Assembly: GCA_029006795.1 (NCBI GenBank)
Contig: JAQXGQ010000122.1
Coordinates: 3,266 to 67,265, forward strand
Length of the DNA stretch: 64,000 nt
DNA from: Clostridiales bacterium
GTDB lineage: Bacteria; Bacillota; Clostridia; Lachnospirales; Lachnospiraceae
Direction of reading: 5' to 3'
A program made the translations under genes and the position numbers. Below are positions 2,113-56,462 of the stretch, in pieces. The stretch's first letter is position 1. Each line of letters opens with the position of its first letter. The notes beneath the pieces are model-generated. The model was given only the letters and a program-made list of their open reading frames with translations. It had not been told where the DNA came from and searched no databases.

Positions 2113-3825
2113 TTATAACGTGTATCTGCTAAGATTTTCATTCATATCAGAAACTGTATGTAATGTCTGATTAATTTCCGTCACCTCCTCTTCCATTGCA
2201 CGATTAAGTTCATTCATTACCTGCGAAATCTGGGTAATCTCATTACTATTTTCTTCTGATGCCTTGCTTATGGAATTCATGGAACTGTGAATCGTCTCTA
2301 TCGATTCAAAATAGCCCTCCATAATCCTGCTGAGTTCTTCCATGTTTTCTGTCATTGTTGCAGTGTTCTTTGAAAATTCATCACTTGCCCCGGAAAACTT
2401 TTGATAGTCTTTAAGTACATTTCCATGAATAAATGCCAGCATATTCTGCGCTGTACTCTGCAATCCCTCAATAGCCTTCATAACATCTTCGCTTACCTGC
2501 TGAATCTGGTTTGCAGCCTCACTGGTATCCGATGCCAACTTGCTAATTTCACCTGCCACCACAGCAAACCCTTTTCCGGCTTCCCCGGCTCTTGCCGCTT
2601 CAATACTGGCATTCAATGCCAACAGATTTGTCTGCTCGGAGATATTAAGAATTGCATCCGATAATTCCTTTATTTTTGCCACATTAGAAGCCTTTTCCTG
2701 TTCTTCTTCTAATCGTCTTCCCATAATAGACACATTTTCAGACACCTCTTTTCCCGAAACATTTGCCATACCGGACAATTCACCGGAAGCATGTTTCATA
2801 TCTTCTACCATTCCGGCATTTTTTTCTGTAATTTCCACCATATGCCGTGTCTGCTCATAAACCTCGTTTGTCTCCTGCTGTGCAGTCAAAATAGATGCTG
2901 TAATCTCTTCTATAGATGCCACCATAGTACACACTACTTGATTGACATTTTTTACATTTTCCTCCGACTGCCCCATATTATTGTTGATAGACACCATTAC
3001 ATTTTCCACCTGATTGTTTCCCTCAGAAAGTTCACGAATGGTATTTCTCGTTTTTTCCAACAATTTATTTAAGTTTTGACCTAAAATCTCTAATTCATCA
3101 CCAGAGTCAATATGCAGTGTCTGTGTCAAATCCCCATTGTCCGACGCCACTTCTACAATAGCATCATTTACGCTTTTTAAATTATGCCCCAATTGTCTTG
3201 CCTTAACGGTTGCAAAAAACAGGGTTAAAATCAATCCCGCAATGACTGCAATGACTATATTTTTCAAAAGTGCATGCAAAGAAGATGCGATTGAGGATAC
3301 CTTACAGTCCACACCTACAATTCCCACAATTTCACCATCTGAATTGTAAATAGGTGCATAAGCACTATATACTGTCCCCCACTCATCTACGGTAGGCTCC
3401 TCCGTCACTGCCGCGGTTCCCTGCCACGCCAGTTCCATTTCATTTTCAGTCTCATACAGTTCCCCTAAGTCTGCCGGTTCTTCTGAATCTGTATCCACTA
3501 CAAACGCAAAATTTTTCTCATCTTCATATGTCATGGAATAAATATAAGCAACCTCTTCGGACTGTTTAAATTTTGAAAGCCTGTCATATACCGCCTGGTA
3601 TTCTTCCGAATCGTCACCCGCTTCCATGATACACTCAAATACATCACCATCCAGATTATTCGCCGCCATTATAGCAACATTTAATGTTTCCTTCCTGCTG
3701 TTTTCCTTCAAATGGTTTTGCAATGTCAGATAAGAAATTCCCCCTGTCAACGATGAAACAAATAATACTGCTATTACAATATACACAAACATCTGTGCTG
3801 ATATACTCAGTTTTCTCGTACGCAT
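2113..3825 (-). CDS. methyl-accepting chemotaxis protein (Cache-like sensor, HAMP, MCP signal domain)
   Basis: Two TM segments, [13 protein letters not shown] sensor motif, [27 protein letters not shown]. Confidence 0.95.
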
Positions 3826-5959: not shown

Positions 5960-7951
5960 CTATATCTGGAACTGCTGTACCTGTCCCGCCAGGTTTTCGG
6001 ATGAGGTTGCTAAATTCTTTGCCTCTTCCGCTACCTGCTCACTGTTCTCCGAAATTCCCTTTGCCTGTGCTAACATCGCCTCGGATGTAGCGAGAATTTC
6101 ATCTGAACTTGCCGCCTGTTCCTCAGAAATGGCTGCTACATTGGTTGCCACCTGATCCACCTGGTTGACTTTTTCCACCACGCTTTCAATCAGCTGACTG
6201 GTATCCTGTACATTTTGGAAAATAAGATCAAAGGTATCTACTGCTGTATGTATCAATTCTGTGCTGTCACTAATTTCTCCTACACTGTCTCCTGCCTGTC
6301 TTACCGCATCCTCCACCAATAAATTAATCTGGTTAATCAGACGGGCAATGTTCTCTACAGATTCCGCACTGTTCTGTGCCAGTTTACCGATTTCCGTTGC
6401 CACCACTGCAAATCCCTTTCCTGCCTCTCCTGCTCTTGCAGCTTCAATAGAAGCATTCAAAGAAAGTAAATTTGTTTCCTCTGCAATGTTTCCGATAAAT
6501 TGCACAATCTGTACAATCTCGCCGGATGCCGTACCAACTTTATTTACTGCGGTCTCTAAGTTCTGCACGGAAAGTTTGATATTTTCCAAAGCCTCTCCAA
6601 CGCGCTTCATATCCGTTCTGCCTTTTTCAGATACGTCTACTGTCTCACGCATCTTTTCTTCCACAGCATCACTGTCTGTCTTCGTGTCTGCCACATAGCC
6701 TGCTAACATGGTTGCATTTTCTGCAATCTCATTTACAGAAATAGAAAGCTGGTCTACCGTCATATTTAATTCACTCATAGACTGTGCCTGAATATTTGCC
6801 GCATCATTCATATCATGGGACACATCATCACAGGAGAGTGCCTGTCCTTTTAATTTACCGGAGATATCCCCCATAGACGAAATCATGGAACGCATAGAAG
6901 CAATAAATTTCTCCACGCTGCGGCTCATTACCGCAATCTCATCATTTCCCTTTGTGGATACTGATACCGTAAAGTCACCAGAAGACATTGACGTAATGGT
7001 TTCCGTCAGTTTCTTCACCGGTTTAATAACCATATGTGTCATACGTTCTACCACCACGCAAAGCAGTAAAATGGCAATAATACTGATAATCAGCATAATT
7101 GTACGCAATTTTGCCAGATCTGCAAGTACAACGCCCGTAGGTATGTAGGAAACTAAGATCCAGTTTGTTCCGTTTACTTTTTCAAAAACAGTCATGTTCC
7201 CGTCTAACGTACAGAAATCATAATCCGCTTCCGTAATCTTTGCTGCCACATCTCCGTAGAAAACCGGCTGTCCCTCTCCTCCCAATTTCTGGGAAATTAA
7301 TTCTGAATCACGATGCGCTAAAATAGTACCGGTATTCAAGTCCACCAGAAACGCTTCTGCCCCATCCATTTCAATGAATGAATTTACGATAATGCTGATA
7401 CGTTCCAGTGTCACATCAGCCGATATAACCTTTATCTCGCCTGTTCCGTCATTTAAGATACCAGAGGCACTGATTACATTGATTCCCTCTGCATTCTGAT
7501 ATGCGGAACCATATGCCATGTTGATTCTTGTAAGTCCCTCTTTGTACCAGGTACTATTTAATGGATCTGATTCTTGCTTTGCAGATTCTGTAGCTTTCTG
7601 CATTTTTCCCGTACTGTCTGCAATATAGAGTCCCTCGGGATAATTGGAATTATATCCATAATAACTGTCAAGCATCTTCTGAAGATCTGCCTCCTTCGGC
7701 TGCACATCTTCGATTGTCTCCTTCACAATCTGAAATGCTGCAAGGTTCTCGTTCAGCCACGCCTCGATTCTGGATGCTTGATTTGAAACAGAGGCTTCCA
7801 AAAGATCTCTGGAATCATCTTCAATGATACCGGCACACACATTGTATGCCACCAGTAAAAGTACTACTATCAAAACAATTACTACCGGGATAACAGTTCC
7901 CAGCAATTTTGTCTTAATAGATAAAAACTTATTTTCTTTTGTCTGCTCCAT
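5960..7951 (-). CDS. methyl-accepting chemotaxis protein with dCache-type sensor
   Basis: Two TMs, WYKEG/AY Cache motifs, [31 protein letters not shown]. Confidence 0.95.
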
Positions 7952-32914: not shown

Positions 32915-33058
32915 CAAAAGCCCAGTCACAGAGACCGGGCATATCATCTAATTGATGTCACTTCCGCTCCCTACGACAGTTTTAACTGACAGGTTCAAAG
33001 AGTCAGGTTTTACCTTCTCAACCGTTTGTGTCTCCACGCACAGTCCCTCTGCGATAGT
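32915..33058 (-). promoter_or_regulatory. TPP riboswitch with terminator expression platform
   Basis: GGGA..GTTGAGAAG..CTCTTTGAACCTGTCAGTTAAAACTGTCGTAGGGAG; terminator GCCCGGTC..GACTGGGC-TTTT at 32915-32940. Confidence 0.93.
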
Positions 33059-33130
33059 TTTTATTTTGTATACATCATACATTAGACTAATTTGCCCTGT
33101 CTGTCAATCCCTGTTCCCGTTTTTGAACAT

Positions 33131-37654: not shown

Positions 37655-37905
37655 CATGAAACAAAAAACGGATAACCCCATCTCCTTAGAGACGAAATTA
37701 TCCGCGGTTCCACTCTATTAAAAATCCAATGATTTTCACTCAATACACGTAACGTGTGTAAAACGTATCAGGCTACTAAATTCGCCCAATCAGCTCCCGG
37801 AGGCACTTCAAAAATCTCTTCCCTAAGACTGCTTTCAGCCGATGACAGCCTCTCTCTTTCGGATGTCTGATTTCCTACTCTTTCCGTTCTGTGCCTTTGT
37901 TTTAT
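37655..37905 (-). promoter_or_regulatory. T-box riboswitch, Cys specifier (UGC)
   Basis: AGAGA and GCTGAAA stem I motifs; GAAG-TGC specifier (37805-37803); AGAGTGGAACCGCG T-box; terminator; promoter TTGACA-17-TAAACT. Confidence 0.93.
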
Positions 37906-45811: not shown

Positions 45812-47080
45812 TTATATAAGCGAACTGTACAAGTCTCCTGAATTATAGTTATAGGTATAAGTTCCGTCGTCACTGTATGTATTCGACTTCGATGCTTCCA
45901 ACTCCGCATAAGTATCAATCTTAGAGATTTGTTCCTCTATCTCCGCGCCAAAACTGTTCGTATTCTGAAACAGAGATTTCACTTTTGACATATCTGCTTC
46001 TTTGAATTTCTCTTCATCAATAGAGAGATTATCATCAGAGTCAATCGTGATTCCCACAGCAGCAAGAGCAGCCTTATTCGCCAGTGTATAATTTATCATT
46101 GTCTTTCGTGCCTGATGAATGTTCTTTGTATCTGAATCCTCAGTCTTATCCACCAACGTATTATAATCCTTAGCAAAACTTTTGACTGCCTTATAAATAG
46201 CGTCTATATCATAGCCAGTGACACTGTTGCCCTCTTCATCCGTTTTGGTAACCTGATTGAACAGAGACTTGCTGCCGGTAGTGCGCAATGCAGTAAGCGT
46301 TTTCTTTGCATCCTCTGCTGCCTCTTCAATGGCTCCTAATGTTTTAGTCGTATCCTTTGAGGTAGACGTAGATTTCAAGCTGGATTTATAACTCTCGTTT
46401 GTATCATTACCTGCTTTTTTCGCTTCCATGCTGGCATAACTATTGATACTGGTTGCCTTCGCATTCACCTGATAAGCATAGCCGCCCGTCGACTGGAACA
46501 GAGATTGTACCCTTGCCTTACTTGCATTCTTAAACTTATCCTCATCAATGGAAAGCTTATTGTCCGAACCTACCGTGATGCCCACCTCAGAAAGAGCCTT
46601 CTCATTTGCCGACGTATATTTTACCATGCTTGCAGCTGTCCGTAAAATACTGGCAGTATCAGATTCTGCTGCGGCATCAACCAGATTATTATAATCACTG
46701 ATAAAGTTCTTGACTGCCTTATAAACAGCATCCGTATCATACTCGACATAGCTGTTGCCCTTCTCATCCGTTTTCATCTGAAACAGATTGTCCTTACCCT
46801 TTGTCAGCAGTGCAGATGCCGAATCTTTCACATCGCTTGCAGCCTCCTTAATAGAGGTCAATGTCTGCTTACTATCCATCGTAGCAGACGAAGACGAGCC
46901 ATTTTCTACTTTGGTATAATATGCAGATACCAGTTTACGATAACTGCCATTTTTAAGACTTGCATAATCAGTGTAACTAATTCCCAGCAAATCTGATGAA
47001 TTCGAATTTTTTTCTGTGTTTCCGACACTGGAAAATAACATACCTAATGAAGATGAATCATATCCCGAAATACCTGCCAT
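45812..47080 (-). CDS. FliD-C-like (flagellar cap-like) protein with two internal repeats
   Basis: Repeat AVK.F..DYN.LVD...L..VGIT..SD..LSIDE.KFK.A....V.SLF occurs twice; no signal peptide; sigma-D-type promoter. Confidence 0.75.
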   Translation of the reverse strand: MAGISGYDSSSLGMLFSSVGNTEKNSNSSDLLGISYTDYASLKNGSYRKLVSAYYTKVENGSSSSATMDSKQTLTSIKEAASDVKDSASALLTKGKDNLFQMKTDEKGNSYVEYDTDAVYKAVKNFISDYNNLVDAAAESDTASILRTAASMVKYTSANEKALSEVGITVGSDNKLSIDEDKFKNASKARVQSLFQSTGGYAYQVNAKATSINSYASMEAKKAGNDTNESYKSSLKSTSTSKDTTKTLGAIEEAAEDAKKTLTALRTTGSKSLFNQVTKTDEEGNSVTGYDIDAIYKAVKSFAKDYNTLVDKTEDSDTKNIHQARKTMINYTLANKAALAAVGITIDSDDNLSIDEEKFKEADMSKVKSLFQNTNSFGAEIEEQISKIDTYAELEASKSNTYSDDGTYTYNYNSGDLYSSLI

Positions 47081-47160
47081 AATATCACTCCTTTGAAAAT
47101 AATTGCCTCTCTGTGGCTCACTTATGACTTCCCTGTCATATTACTTCTCTCTTTCTCTTT

Positions 47161-47187
47161 ATATCGTCATTTTATCCCGAAATATTA
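47161..47187 (-). promoter_or_regulatory. sigma-D (sigma-28) promoter
   Basis: TAAT-N15-GACGATAT versus consensus TAAA-N15-GCCGATAT. Confidence 0.65.
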
Positions 47188-47349
47188 GGATTTTCAAGTA
47201 CTTCCATTCATTTTGTACAGTTTATACAATGTATTTTTCACAAAAAAATGTATACATTTATCCCATTATACTGTGATTATGTACAAAAAAATCGAAAAAG
47301 TTCAACACTTGTTCATATTTTATTCATATATTATTGCTATACTAACTAT

Positions 47350-47450
47350 AGTAAATAAATCACAGGACAATTCGTTATAATATACTTGATAGATTTTTTC
47401 ATAATAGCCCGGATATCTGCGAAGGTATTCGGGCACTCCTCATTTTTTAG
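47350..47450 (+). ncRNA. candidate anti-SD/anti-AUG small RNA
   Basis: Extended -10 TGCTATACT (47335-47343); 12-bp hairpin with GCGA tetraloop and two G-U pairs (47407-47434) flanked by UUUUUUCAUAAUA and ACUCCUC. Confidence 0.55.
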
Positions 47451-47516
47451 GGAAAATTTTTCTACAAAAAAACTGCCGCTTAAGAGATTACGACACCTCT
47501 CTGCGACAGTTTTTAT

Positions 47517-48194
47517 TTATACATTTTCAATCTGCCAGTCAATCGGTTCCACCCCATGACTCTTCAAAAAATCATTTGCCTGACTAAAATGCTTGCATCC
47601 AAAGAAGCCACGGTATGCTGACAGCGGACTTGGATGAGGCGCTTTCAAAATCAGATGCTTTGGATTTGTCAGCATCGGTATCTTGCTCTGTGCCGGTCTG
47701 CCCCAAAGCATATACACAATCGGTCTGTCCTGAGCATTTACTGCCTGAATAATGGCATCCGTAAACTGTTCCCATCCTCTTCCCTGGTGAGAATTTGCCT
47801 GATGTGCCCGCACGGTAAGCACAGTGTTTAGCAGCAGTACTCCCTGATCTGCCCACTTTTTCAGATAACCATTGTTTGGAATTTCACATCCCAAATCATC
47901 CTGCAGTTCTTTGTAAATGTTCTGCAAAGACGGCGGTATCTCCTTCTGTGACGGAGGTACAGAAAAACTCAGTCCATGTGCCTGATTGACGTTATGATAG
48001 GGATCCTGCCCTAAGATTAATACCTTTACCTCACTAAGCGGTGTAAAGTGCATGGCATTAAAAATATCGTCTGCCGGCGGATAAATAACTGCTCTGCTGT
48101 ATTCTTCTTTTACAAATTGAAATAATTCTCTGTAATATGGCTTTCTAAACTCATCCTGTAATGCCGGAAGCCAGTCATTTGTAATCATTGCCAT
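47517..48194 (-). CDS. ung: uracil-DNA glycosylase
   Basis: GQDPYH, AHGLSFSV, PPSL.N, GVLLLN, HPSPLS. Confidence 0.97.
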   Translation of the reverse strand: MAMITNDWLPALQDEFRKPYYRELFQFVKEEYSRAVIYPPADDIFNAMHFTPLSEVKVLILGQDPYHNVNQAHGLSFSVPPSQKEIPPSLQNIYKELQDDLGCEIPNNGYLKKWADQGVLLLNTVLTVRAHQANSHQGRGWEQFTDAIIQAVNAQDRPIVYMLWGRPAQSKIPMLTNPKHLILKAPHPSPLSAYRGFFGCKHFSQANDFLKSHGVEPIDWQIENV

Positions 48195-48201
48195 AAATTC
48201 A

Positions 48202-48963
48202 TTACCTTCTGACGGAAACACCACGTCCTGCCAAATAATCTTTCAAGTCATTAATTTCTAGTTCCTTGTAATGGAACAAGGATGCCGCTAATGCTGCATC
48301 TGCGCATCCCTCTGTCAAAGCGTCATAAAAATGTTCTTTTGTACCTGCACCACCGGAAGCAATCACTGGAATAGACACATTCTCCGCAATCTGCTTTGTC
48401 AGTTCCACATCATATCCTGCTTTTGTTCCGTCACAGTCCATACTGGTGAGAAGGATTTCTCCCGCACCGAGTTTATCTGCCTTCATCGCCCATTCAACTG
48501 CATCAATTCCAACGTCCACTCTTCCGCCATTTTTATAAATGTTCCAACCGGATCCATCGGCGCGTCTTCTCGCATCAATCGCCACTACCACACACTGACT
48601 GCCGAATTTATCTGCTGCTTCGCTGATAAGTTCCGGCCGGTTAATCGCAGAAGAATTGATGGAAATCTTATCTGCGCCCTCCCGAAGCAATACCTTAAAA
48701 TCTTCCACGGTACGGATACCCCCCCCTACCGTAAAAGGAATAAATACCTTTTCTGCCACTTTCCGCACCATATCCACTACCGTATTTCTCTGGTCAGAGG
48801 TGGCTGTAATATCCAAAAAAACCAGCTCATCCGCACCTGCTTTATCGTAGGCTGCTGCAATTTCCACCGGATCACCGGCATCCCGTAGGTTAACAAAATT
48901 GACCCCTTTTACCACTCGTCCGTTATTAACATCAAGACAGGGTATAATTCTCTTGGTAAACAT
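48202..48963 (-). CDS. hisF: imidazole glycerol phosphate synthase cyclase subunit
   Basis: [35 protein letters not shown]. Confidence 0.97.
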
Positions 48964-55914: not shown

Positions 55915-56104
55915 ATGTTTTTAAACCCCATTTTATCTCTAAGTCCGGTATCTTAGCCGAACCTAACATATCGTTTTTCAATATCTATTATAAAAAAGTG
56001 ACATATGAAATACAACACTAATATTCTTCCTAAGGATATAAAATAAGTGTCGAAAACCATCGATTGTTCTAGCCAATCACGCATTTCCGGCACTTTCCTT
56101 TGAG

Positions 56105-56462
56105 TGGACCTGACGGGAGTCGAACCCGTGTCCAAAAACCAATCCCCTGTCCTTCTACGAGCGTAGCTTATGGATTAACATTCCCTCTGCCGGACTTGCA
56201 TAAGCACAATTCCGGTTTCAGTAGCTTCATCATACGCCTGCGGGCTCAAAGCTTTGCCCGTATCGTTTCCTACATAGTCGAAGCCTGAGTCCTAAAGTGT
56301 AGGTGCTCTAGGTCAGACTGCTGCCATTAGGGCAGCCAAGTTGCAGCTTAGGCTGCAACCGCTAAATTATCTTCAGCGTTTAATTTTAAGTTTGGAATTT
56401 AACGCATCCCCTGCGACTCGCTTCTCCAGCTTCATGATCCCTGTCGAAACCATTACAAGCCC
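56105..56462 (-). ncRNA. ssrA: tmRNA; tag (A)AEDNLAVAA*
   Basis: 5' GGGCTTGTAATGGTTTCGAC; 3' GGGTTCGACTCCCGTCAGGTCCA; G3-U70 pair; resume ORF GCT GAA GAT AAT TTA GCG GTT GCA GCC TAA; downstream of smpB. Confidence 0.96.

Follow-up and report, generated by a model that had tools for sequence, protein, structure and literature searches.

A single-copy small RNA gene of Lachnospiraceae with a putative response-regulator promoter and two invariant arms complementary to translation start regions

The window analysed here is a stretch of 64,000 nucleotides from a genome deposited as Clostridiales bacterium and placed in the Lachnospiraceae (GenBank assembly GCA_029006795.1, contig JAQXGQ010000122.1, positions 3,266 to 67,265 of the forward strand); coordinates below are those of the window unless a contig is named. 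The subject is a 436-nt gap within a series of minus-strand genes, which comprises hisH, hisF, ung (47517-48224), the gap, a gene for a protein with a FliD_C domain (45812-47080; hereafter the FliD-like gene), mnmA and metH. An earlier note on this DNA had proposed that the gap encodes an undescribed plus-strand small RNA (sRNA) which clamps the translation start of the FliD-like gene. The first half of this proposal is supported by what follows and the second half is not: the gap is best read as an independent, single-copy, plus-strand sRNA gene of ~100-115 nt with a response-regulator-type promoter, the product of which would block the start regions of multiple mRNAs in the manner of the streptococcal csRNAs, a reading to which we assign a probability of roughly 0.55. 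Transcription of the proposed RNA would run away from the FliD-like gene and towards ung; the term “divergent” is thus correct for the RNA and the FliD-like gene, but not for the two protein genes, both of which lie on the minus strand. The features of the locus are as follows.

45812 to 47080, minus strand: gene for the FliD_C-domain protein, 422 aa (Pfam PF07195, E 8e-17)
47078 to 47092, minus strand: Shine-Dalgarno (SD) sequence (AGGAGUG) of the FliD-like gene and its start (UAUUAUG), the target site proposed in the earlier note
47300 to 47328, plus strand: three direct 7-mers in 11-bp phase (GTTCAAC, 47300-06; GTTCATA, 47311-17; ATTCATA, 47322-28)
47335 to 47343, plus strand: extended -10 element (TGCTATACT), 9 nt past the last repeat
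47350 to 47461, plus strand: predicted sRNA, ~100-115 nt, the 5′ end being deduced from the -10 element and the 3′ end possibly extending to 47514
47350 to 47382, plus strand: variable 5′ part, with low conservation and indels of lengths not divisible by three
47383 to 47406, plus strand: left single-stranded arm, conserved in alignments and unpaired in the minimum-energy fold
47394 to 47406, plus strand: UUUUUUCAUAAUA, the invariant core of the left arm, which holds the anti-AUG and is complementary to AUG AAA AAA starts
47407 to 47434, plus strand: hairpin P2, 12 bp with a GCGA loop, showing covariation and strand-specific stability
47435 to 47448, plus strand: right single-stranded arm ACUCCUCAUUUUUU, with an anti-SD (CUCCUC) that is invariant across the family in alignments
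47437 to 47461, plus strand: weak stem (UCCU/GGGA) followed by a U-run, a candidate weak terminator
47473 to 47514, no strand assigned: hairpin preceded by an A-run and followed by a T-run, pairing better on the minus strand
47517 to 48224, minus strand: uracil-DNA glycosylase gene ung (Pfam PF03167, E 1e-19), convergent with the RNA

The sequence features listed in the earlier note are all present at their positions: the extended -10 element on the plus strand (47335-47343), the motif CATAATA (47400-47406), the 12-bp hairpin (47407-47418 paired with 47423-47434 around the GCGA loop), two G-U pairs of which become A-C mismatches on the minus strand, and the string CATAATA-T-CACTCCT across the start of the FliD-like gene (47078-47092). 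The left-arm flank, which the note had considered fit for generic AUG-AAA-AAA starts, does contain in UUUUUUCAUAAUA the complement of AUG AAA AAA. The second pairing block, CACTCCT, is found at 47434-47440 as described, but it is not a free heptamer; since C47434 closes the hairpin stem, only six nucleotides (ACUCCU) are available without opening it.

Three sets of genomes were searched, namely 157 of the same genus, 150 from as many other genera of the family and a class-wide sample of 150 Clostridia. A DNA search recovered the RNA unit in 52 of the 157 genomes of the genus, and a covariance model built from 30 of these matches gave exactly one match each in 48 of the 150 genomes from other Lachnospiraceae genera; in the class-wide sample not one of the ~147 genomes outside the family had a match, the only matches falling in two of the three members of the same family. 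In the genome of the window, the covariance model R1 matches once, at 47350..47461 (E 6e-14). Additional copies of the unit were not found there, and it being single copy rules out a genome-internal repeat element.

Conservation is unevenly spread over the unit. The 5′-side UUUUUUCAUAAUA and the 3′-side ACUCCUCAUUU are essentially invariant over 49 genera, while the sequence of the hairpin between them varies freely. What is kept in the hairpin is its pairing: in 59 aligned homologues 99.2% of the P2 cells are paired, both sides have changed in seven of the nine pairs, and 82 cells carry a double change as compared with 11 in shuffled alignments; the observed values were reached by none of 500 shuffles, and pairing drops to ~40% once the partner is slid by a single column. 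The hairpin and its flanks are therefore kept in relatives, with covariation, and their conservation as judged from these alignments is far beyond chance. The 5′ part of the RNA is variable, as noted above; in some other genera it contains a GUAAUG...CAUUAC hairpin, a motif present at 8 of 60 loci. The strand of the structure can be read directly as well. G-U pairs, as read on the plus strand, make up about 16% of the P2 stem cells in the 59 homologues. In 57 of 60 homologues the plus-strand hairpin is more stable than its minus-strand counterpart, and in 38 of the 60 its loop, if read on the plus strand, is GNRA or UUCG. The element of the window itself folds with -23.9 kcal/mol on the plus strand (z -2.4) versus -15.7 kcal/mol on the minus strand (z -0.3), and both arms are left unpaired in the minimum-energy fold of the RNA. 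The covarying structure generally looked for in an sRNA is thus found, and on the transcribed strand.

The same bases could in principle serve the minus strand, where the hairpin would join an SD and a start codon of a tiny leader reading frame (MKKFI...) or would only terminate the convergent gene. The minus strand does read GAGGAGU, hairpin, UAUUAUG AAA AAA with an ATG-initiated open reading frame (ORF) always present, and the gene that faces the RNA, ung in this genome and an alarmone synthetase in others, often ends at 5-25 nt from the element without another hairpin in between. However, the ~16% of stem cells that are G-U on the plus strand would be A-C, the hairpin is the more stable one on the plus strand in nearly all homologues, the conserved promoter points in the plus direction, and the minus-strand tail beyond the hairpin is A-rich rather than a U-tract. 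The ORF, moreover, ranges from 3 to 40 codons with frame-breaking indels and nothing conserved past MKK(F)(I), for which reason a conserved peptide was rejected. A functional minus strand is on this evidence highly improbable.

Upstream of the RNA lies a predicted promoter, the architecture of which is conserved as well. The repeats and the extended -10 element are conserved in ~57 of 60 homologous loci from 49 genera, despite changing neighbours; the two proximal repeats are (G/A)TTCATA, the distal one is often TTTACA or TTTAAC, and TGnTAnAnT follows 8-10 nt on, at constant spacing throughout genus and family. The box is located upstream of the invariant block at a median distance of 54 nt. 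An own promoter that is conserved together with the RNA, as expected of a trans-encoded sRNA, is hence present, and the extended -10 element to which the earlier note had drawn attention belongs to it. A second -10-like element closer to the conserved core (47376-47381), which may or may not mark a further start site, is variable among relatives and lacks a -35. From the arrangement of the repeats we infer an OmpR/PhoB-type response-regulator box that takes the place of the -35 element. That the locus has no RNA function at all, the hairpin being due to chance or being a site at which a protein binds the DNA, is scarcely credible given the compensatory changes, the strand-specific G-U pairs, the stable tetraloops and the promoter that is co-conserved in fixed orientation over 49 genera. 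The sequences compared rather indicate a family-wide sRNA gene under a response-regulator promoter, which appears to be real and undescribed.

A position weight matrix (PWM) made from the box sites upstream of the RNA at homologous loci scores 38.7 bits at the RNA promoter of the window; elsewhere in the genome a single strong site stands out with 27 bits, followed by one of 15. This second box is located ~210 nt upstream of a gene for a 729-aa membrane protein of the sulfatase/LtaS family (contig C75, ~7088-7125; L052, ~3089-3126), and it is kept upstream of the LtaS-family orthologue in all five relatives tested (L122-L126), so that the LtaS-family gene is likely co-regulated with the RNA. 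The same box precedes both, which probably makes the RNA part of a small two-component regulon that may be concerned with the cell envelope. PhoP was considered as its regulator and rejected; the region upstream of pstS (contig C30, ~400-470) carries a different and classic repeat, TTTACT-N5-TTTACT-N5-TTTACA, a textbook PhoP-type Pho box unlike that of the RNA, and its TTTACT/TTTACA repeats score nothing with the RNA-box PWM, which means that PhoP is not the obvious regulator. A link to a CssR/CiaR-like regulator through htrA comes down to one htrA-like gene with the weakly similar TTCACA-N5-AACACA. The full sequence ahead of this protease gene, ~60 nt upstream of 33516 on contig C41, is TTCACA-N5-AACACA-N9-TAGACT; in its layout it is similar to the promoter of the RNA, but it stays below the PWM cut-off.

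The proposal that the RNA is a dedicated repressor, clamping the SD sequence and the start codon of the adjacent FliD-like gene with two 7-nt blocks, has to be considered with respect to this genome and to its relatives separately. Of 2476 start regions called crudely in the genome of the window, 24 contain AGGAGTG and 52 contain TATTATG, and the two coincide at the FliD-like gene alone; as the expected genome-wide count for the pair is ~0.5, the local match is unusual. RNAcofold returns, as the minimum-energy dimer, exactly the three-way junction that had been envisaged, with the hairpin kept and both blocks paired. Further, the FliD-like gene adjoins the RNA, in divergent orientation, at 25 of the 31 loci examined within the genus, and an SD of the AGGAGUG type is found in all 25 of these FliD-like start regions (GGGAGUG in two); UAUU precedes the start codon in 5 of the 25 as compared with 2% of genes genome-wide.

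Comparison with the relatives speaks against the proposal. The full 7+7 match is kept in only 5 of the 25 FliD-like start regions; in the other 20 the first block is partly lost, whereas the CAUAAUA of the RNA never changes. A complementarity to the FliD-like mRNA that is conserved along with the RNA was thus not found. The caveat that chance may be at work, which the earlier note had itself attached to the match, is answered in two ways: the match is unusual and unique in its genome, but the full pairing with the FliD-like gene is not conserved. Nor does this start region stand out when targets are ranked, as it falls between about the 11th and the 27th percentile, its duplex energy being 282nd of 2476 and its gain upon cofolding at the 27th percentile. 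Over the 25 species the median percentile is 0.25. At five loci of the genus a FliD-type start region is missing from the 700 nt next to the RNA, and at four of these mnmA directly abuts the RNA. In other genera the neighbours are unrelated at 28 of 29 loci, with the RNA arms still invariant; the commonest (L076-L104) are a convergent RelA_SpoT small alarmone synthetase (~220 aa), whose stop codon is 5-100 nt away from the core of the RNA, and a divergently encoded coiled-coil protein of unknown function, which was compared with the FliD-like protein and showed no similarity to it. The synteny on which the FliD-like assignment depends is largely confined to the genus. Finally, three genomes have kept the RNA with neither a flagellin nor a FliD-like match (G110, 82% complete; G115, 100%; G121, 99%).

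Since the neighbours differ, carriers without flagellin exist, the first block decays and the pairing energy is ordinary, the genomes examined do not support a flagellar role as the conserved function of the RNA. The model of a FliD-specific repressor is largely refuted in this respect and is improbable as an account of the RNA; the FliD-like gene may at most be an opportunistic side target in some species of the genus.

Some observations on these neighbours may be added. The FliD-like gene, an orphan, is preceded by a motif resembling Sigma-28/SigD promoters (47161..47188, minus strand; CTAAT, 15 nt, GACGATAT), which we take to be of the SigD type by the Bacillus subtilis consensus; it recurs in the five relatives inspected, in one of them as TAAA-N15-GCCGAACT. 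Two overlapping segments of the 422-aa protein align onto one gene of ~260 aa in most relatives (L027-L051), which makes the copy in this genome look internally duplicated. The divergent coiled-coil protein of other genera starts with MDNFMDKLAQKF. In four genera the upstream neighbour is a protein with multiple S1 domains, encoded co-directionally with the RNA.

The 3′ end of the RNA is less sharply defined than its promoter. A short stem of the CUCC(U)/(A)GGGG type with a U-rich tail is present in many homologues, with 0 to -11 kcal/mol, and absent in ~5 of 60. The hairpin further downstream (47473..47514) is likely, from its sequence, a bidirectional terminator of ung and could be an alternative 3′ end of the RNA; most relatives lack it, and in them 10-25 nt separate the end of ung from the RNA core. 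With a weak 3′ stem and a stronger hairpin shared with ung downstream (its stem at 47473-47509), the predicted length of the RNA spans ~100 to 165 nt.

If the RNA does not serve the FliD-like gene, its arms still point to what it may bind. Joined to each other they are the exact reverse complement of GAGGAGU-UAUU-AUG-AAA-AAA, that is, of an idealised Firmicute start region, and their order would let them pair in antiparallel fashion, the SD sequence being opposite the 3′ arm and the start codon opposite the 5′ arm. A mechanism that would follow from these features begins with an OmpR/PhoB-type response regulator, which would bind the three 11-bp-phased (G/A)TTCATA repeats that replace the -35 element 9 nt before the extended -10 and drive transcription of the RNA. 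Of the two arms, the 3′ one would then pair with SD sequences and the 5′ one with the start codon and the A-rich codons following it, the hairpin being extruded, and binding of the 30S subunit would be blocked on several mRNAs in the fashion of csRNAs. Such an anti-start-region mechanism is plausible, with a csRNA-like anti-SD/anti-AUG RNA and many possible targets. The mean cofold gain is -8.4 kcal/mol on real start regions versus -5.8 kcal/mol on intragenic windows (p 4e-16), and the native RNA gains more on start regions than its flank-shuffled versions do.

Several points weigh against this reading. A preference for start regions is nearly automatic for a pyrimidine- and U-rich sequence and is, being largely built into the base composition, weak evidence. 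Elsewhere in the same genome antisense matches do not exceed 14 nt. A strict bipartite target motif yields 39 matches, in only 33 of the 157 genomes of the genus, versus 9 for the reversed control; the matches give no indication of a site in common (which genes they fall at was not compared), and searches by antisense matching, duplex energy and bipartite motif have found no conserved and well-paired mRNA target. The best duplex among the 2476 start regions, at -30.8 kcal/mol, is with the start of a 917-aa hybrid histidine kinase (C151:12877; L072, 1378), which pairs over ~22 nt with a genus-specific part of the left arm; as the kinase has no orthologue in five relatives, it was rejected as a conserved target. 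A pattern scan detected no canonical intrinsic terminator at the 3′ end of the RNA, and several homologues have a weak 3′ stem or none at all. Lastly, a seed that acts on imperfect targets would not be expected to be as strictly invariant as these 13 + 11 nt are over 49 genera, and the cause might rather be a protein or the ribosome as partner.

This last point is what keeps a protein- or ribosome-binding role the main rival: a real conserved RNA, the arms of which serve as a binding site for a conserved protein or for the ribosome, as in a sponge, a decoy or a component of a ribonucleoprotein, rather than pairing with mRNA starts. Every base of the arms is fixed in 49 genera with the hairpin free to vary, a conserved perfect target was not found, and the weak 3′ terminator may mean that the RNA depends on a factor. 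Against it stands that the arms are, in order and orientation, the exact complement of an SD sequence, an AU spacer, AUG and AAA AAA, which would be a large coincidence, and that predicted pairing favours true start regions; besides, neither a GGA loop (CsrA-type) nor another known protein motif was found on the plus strand. We regard such a partner as a serious though doubtful explanation.

The reading as a csRNA-like blocker of start regions can be taken one step further. The RNA may be a Lachnospiraceae-wide mirror of the ideal ribosome-binding site (RBS), a three-way-junction clamp, with a hairpin keeping its anti-AUG/anti-Lys-codon arm and its anti-SD arm apart, that would globally damp initiation on MKK-type mRNAs, that is, those of exported proteins, upon activation of a dedicated two-component system sensing the envelope; this extension is speculative, and we consider it possible at best.

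Comparison with known RNAs places the element outside described families. In Rfam 15 there is nothing relevant in the window at gathering score, nor in 46900-47700 at E up to 10; the best score in the region, 20.5 bits versus a threshold of 80, is to an unrelated viral family. The view that the RNA is undescribed is in keeping with this, there being no family match at or near gathering score, and full-text searches of the literature for sRNAs of this kind in Lachnospiraceae or Roseburia gave no description of it. Elsewhere in the window Rfam calls at gathering score, all on the minus strand, a tmRNA (56102-56462), a T-box leader (37685-37900) and a TPP riboswitch (32951-33060).

The closest likeness is to the csRNAs of Streptococcus, which had been invoked in the earlier note and prove an apt analogy, more so as it extends to the promoter. 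csRNA promoters contain the CiaR box TTTAAG-N5-TTTAAG, a direct repeat 10 nt before the -10 that replaces the -35, and csRNAs carry anti-SD/anti-AUG stretches (PMC3091779). Common to both are a response-regulator direct repeat (in csRNAs hexamer, 5 nt, hexamer) in lieu of a -35 element and 9-10 nt before the -10, a short RNA of ~100 nt with unpaired stretches complementary to SD and AUG, and membership in a small envelope-linked two-component regulon, which is putative in the present case (PMC3091779 for the csRNAs). The differences are nonetheless considerable. The box here is (G/A)TTCATA-N4-(G/A)TTCATA, 9 nt before TATACT and with a third copy upstream, rather than TTTAAG; the Rfam csRNA model has no match in 46900-47700 even at E up to 10, nor any in the window at gathering score; the RNA is present once per genome and was found only in Lachnospiraceae, whereas csRNAs are streptococcal and number five in pneumococcus. 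In csRNAs the blocks lie in one unpaired linker between two stem-loops, whereas the anti-AUG and anti-SD here are split by a hairpin of 9-13 bp, which they flank unpaired, and the second stem-loop, the terminator, is weak. By analogy, the RNA would work like the streptococcal csRNAs and is not one of them.

Two other groups of sRNAs are more distant in kind. RoxS/RsaE of Bacillales is an sRNA of multiple Firmicute genera under the control of ResDE/SrrAB, in which pyrimidine-rich unpaired motifs mask several SDs. It shares with the RNA a conservation beyond the genus and, as predicted for the latter, two-component control and an unpaired pyrimidine-rich motif that masks SDs, and is a looser analogue than the csRNAs; it contains repeated CCCC loop motifs instead of one CUCCUC with a separate anti-AUG arm, its taxonomic range and its promoter box are others, and the RNA described here has no Rfam match. 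MicA and RybB of enterobacteria are envelope-stress sRNAs which cut the synthesis of exported proteins, are driven by Sigma-E and act through Hfq-dependent 5′ seeds. The likeness to these is a functional analogy: with an arm that is the complement of AUG AAA AAA, the RNA would act preferentially on starts of the MKK type, which resemble signal peptides, and the gene likely co-regulated with it encodes an envelope enzyme of the LtaS family, the envelope link consisting in that one gene. A response regulator, however, takes the place of Sigma-E, and there is no homology.

Lachnospiraceae, with Roseburia and its relatives among them, are dominant gut commensals that produce butyrate, and to our knowledge almost nothing is known about their RNA regulators. 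The locus provides a single-copy, family-wide sRNA gene with a sharply defined box, a second candidate member of its regulon and two invariant arms from which the outcome of mutations can be predicted, and the tempting inference of a flagellar regulator, the basis of which had been a local match in one genome, is corrected. Should the proposed mechanism be true, a clamp split into anti-SD and anti-AUG arms would carry the principle of the csRNAs over to a distant lineage of Firmicutes, in another geometry, and the RNA would offer a handle on an uncharacterised two-component regulon. If it also mirrors the ideal RBS in the sense outlined above, it would be the counterpart, in Gram-positive commensals, of the sigma-E-dependent sRNAs, with a new binding geometry.

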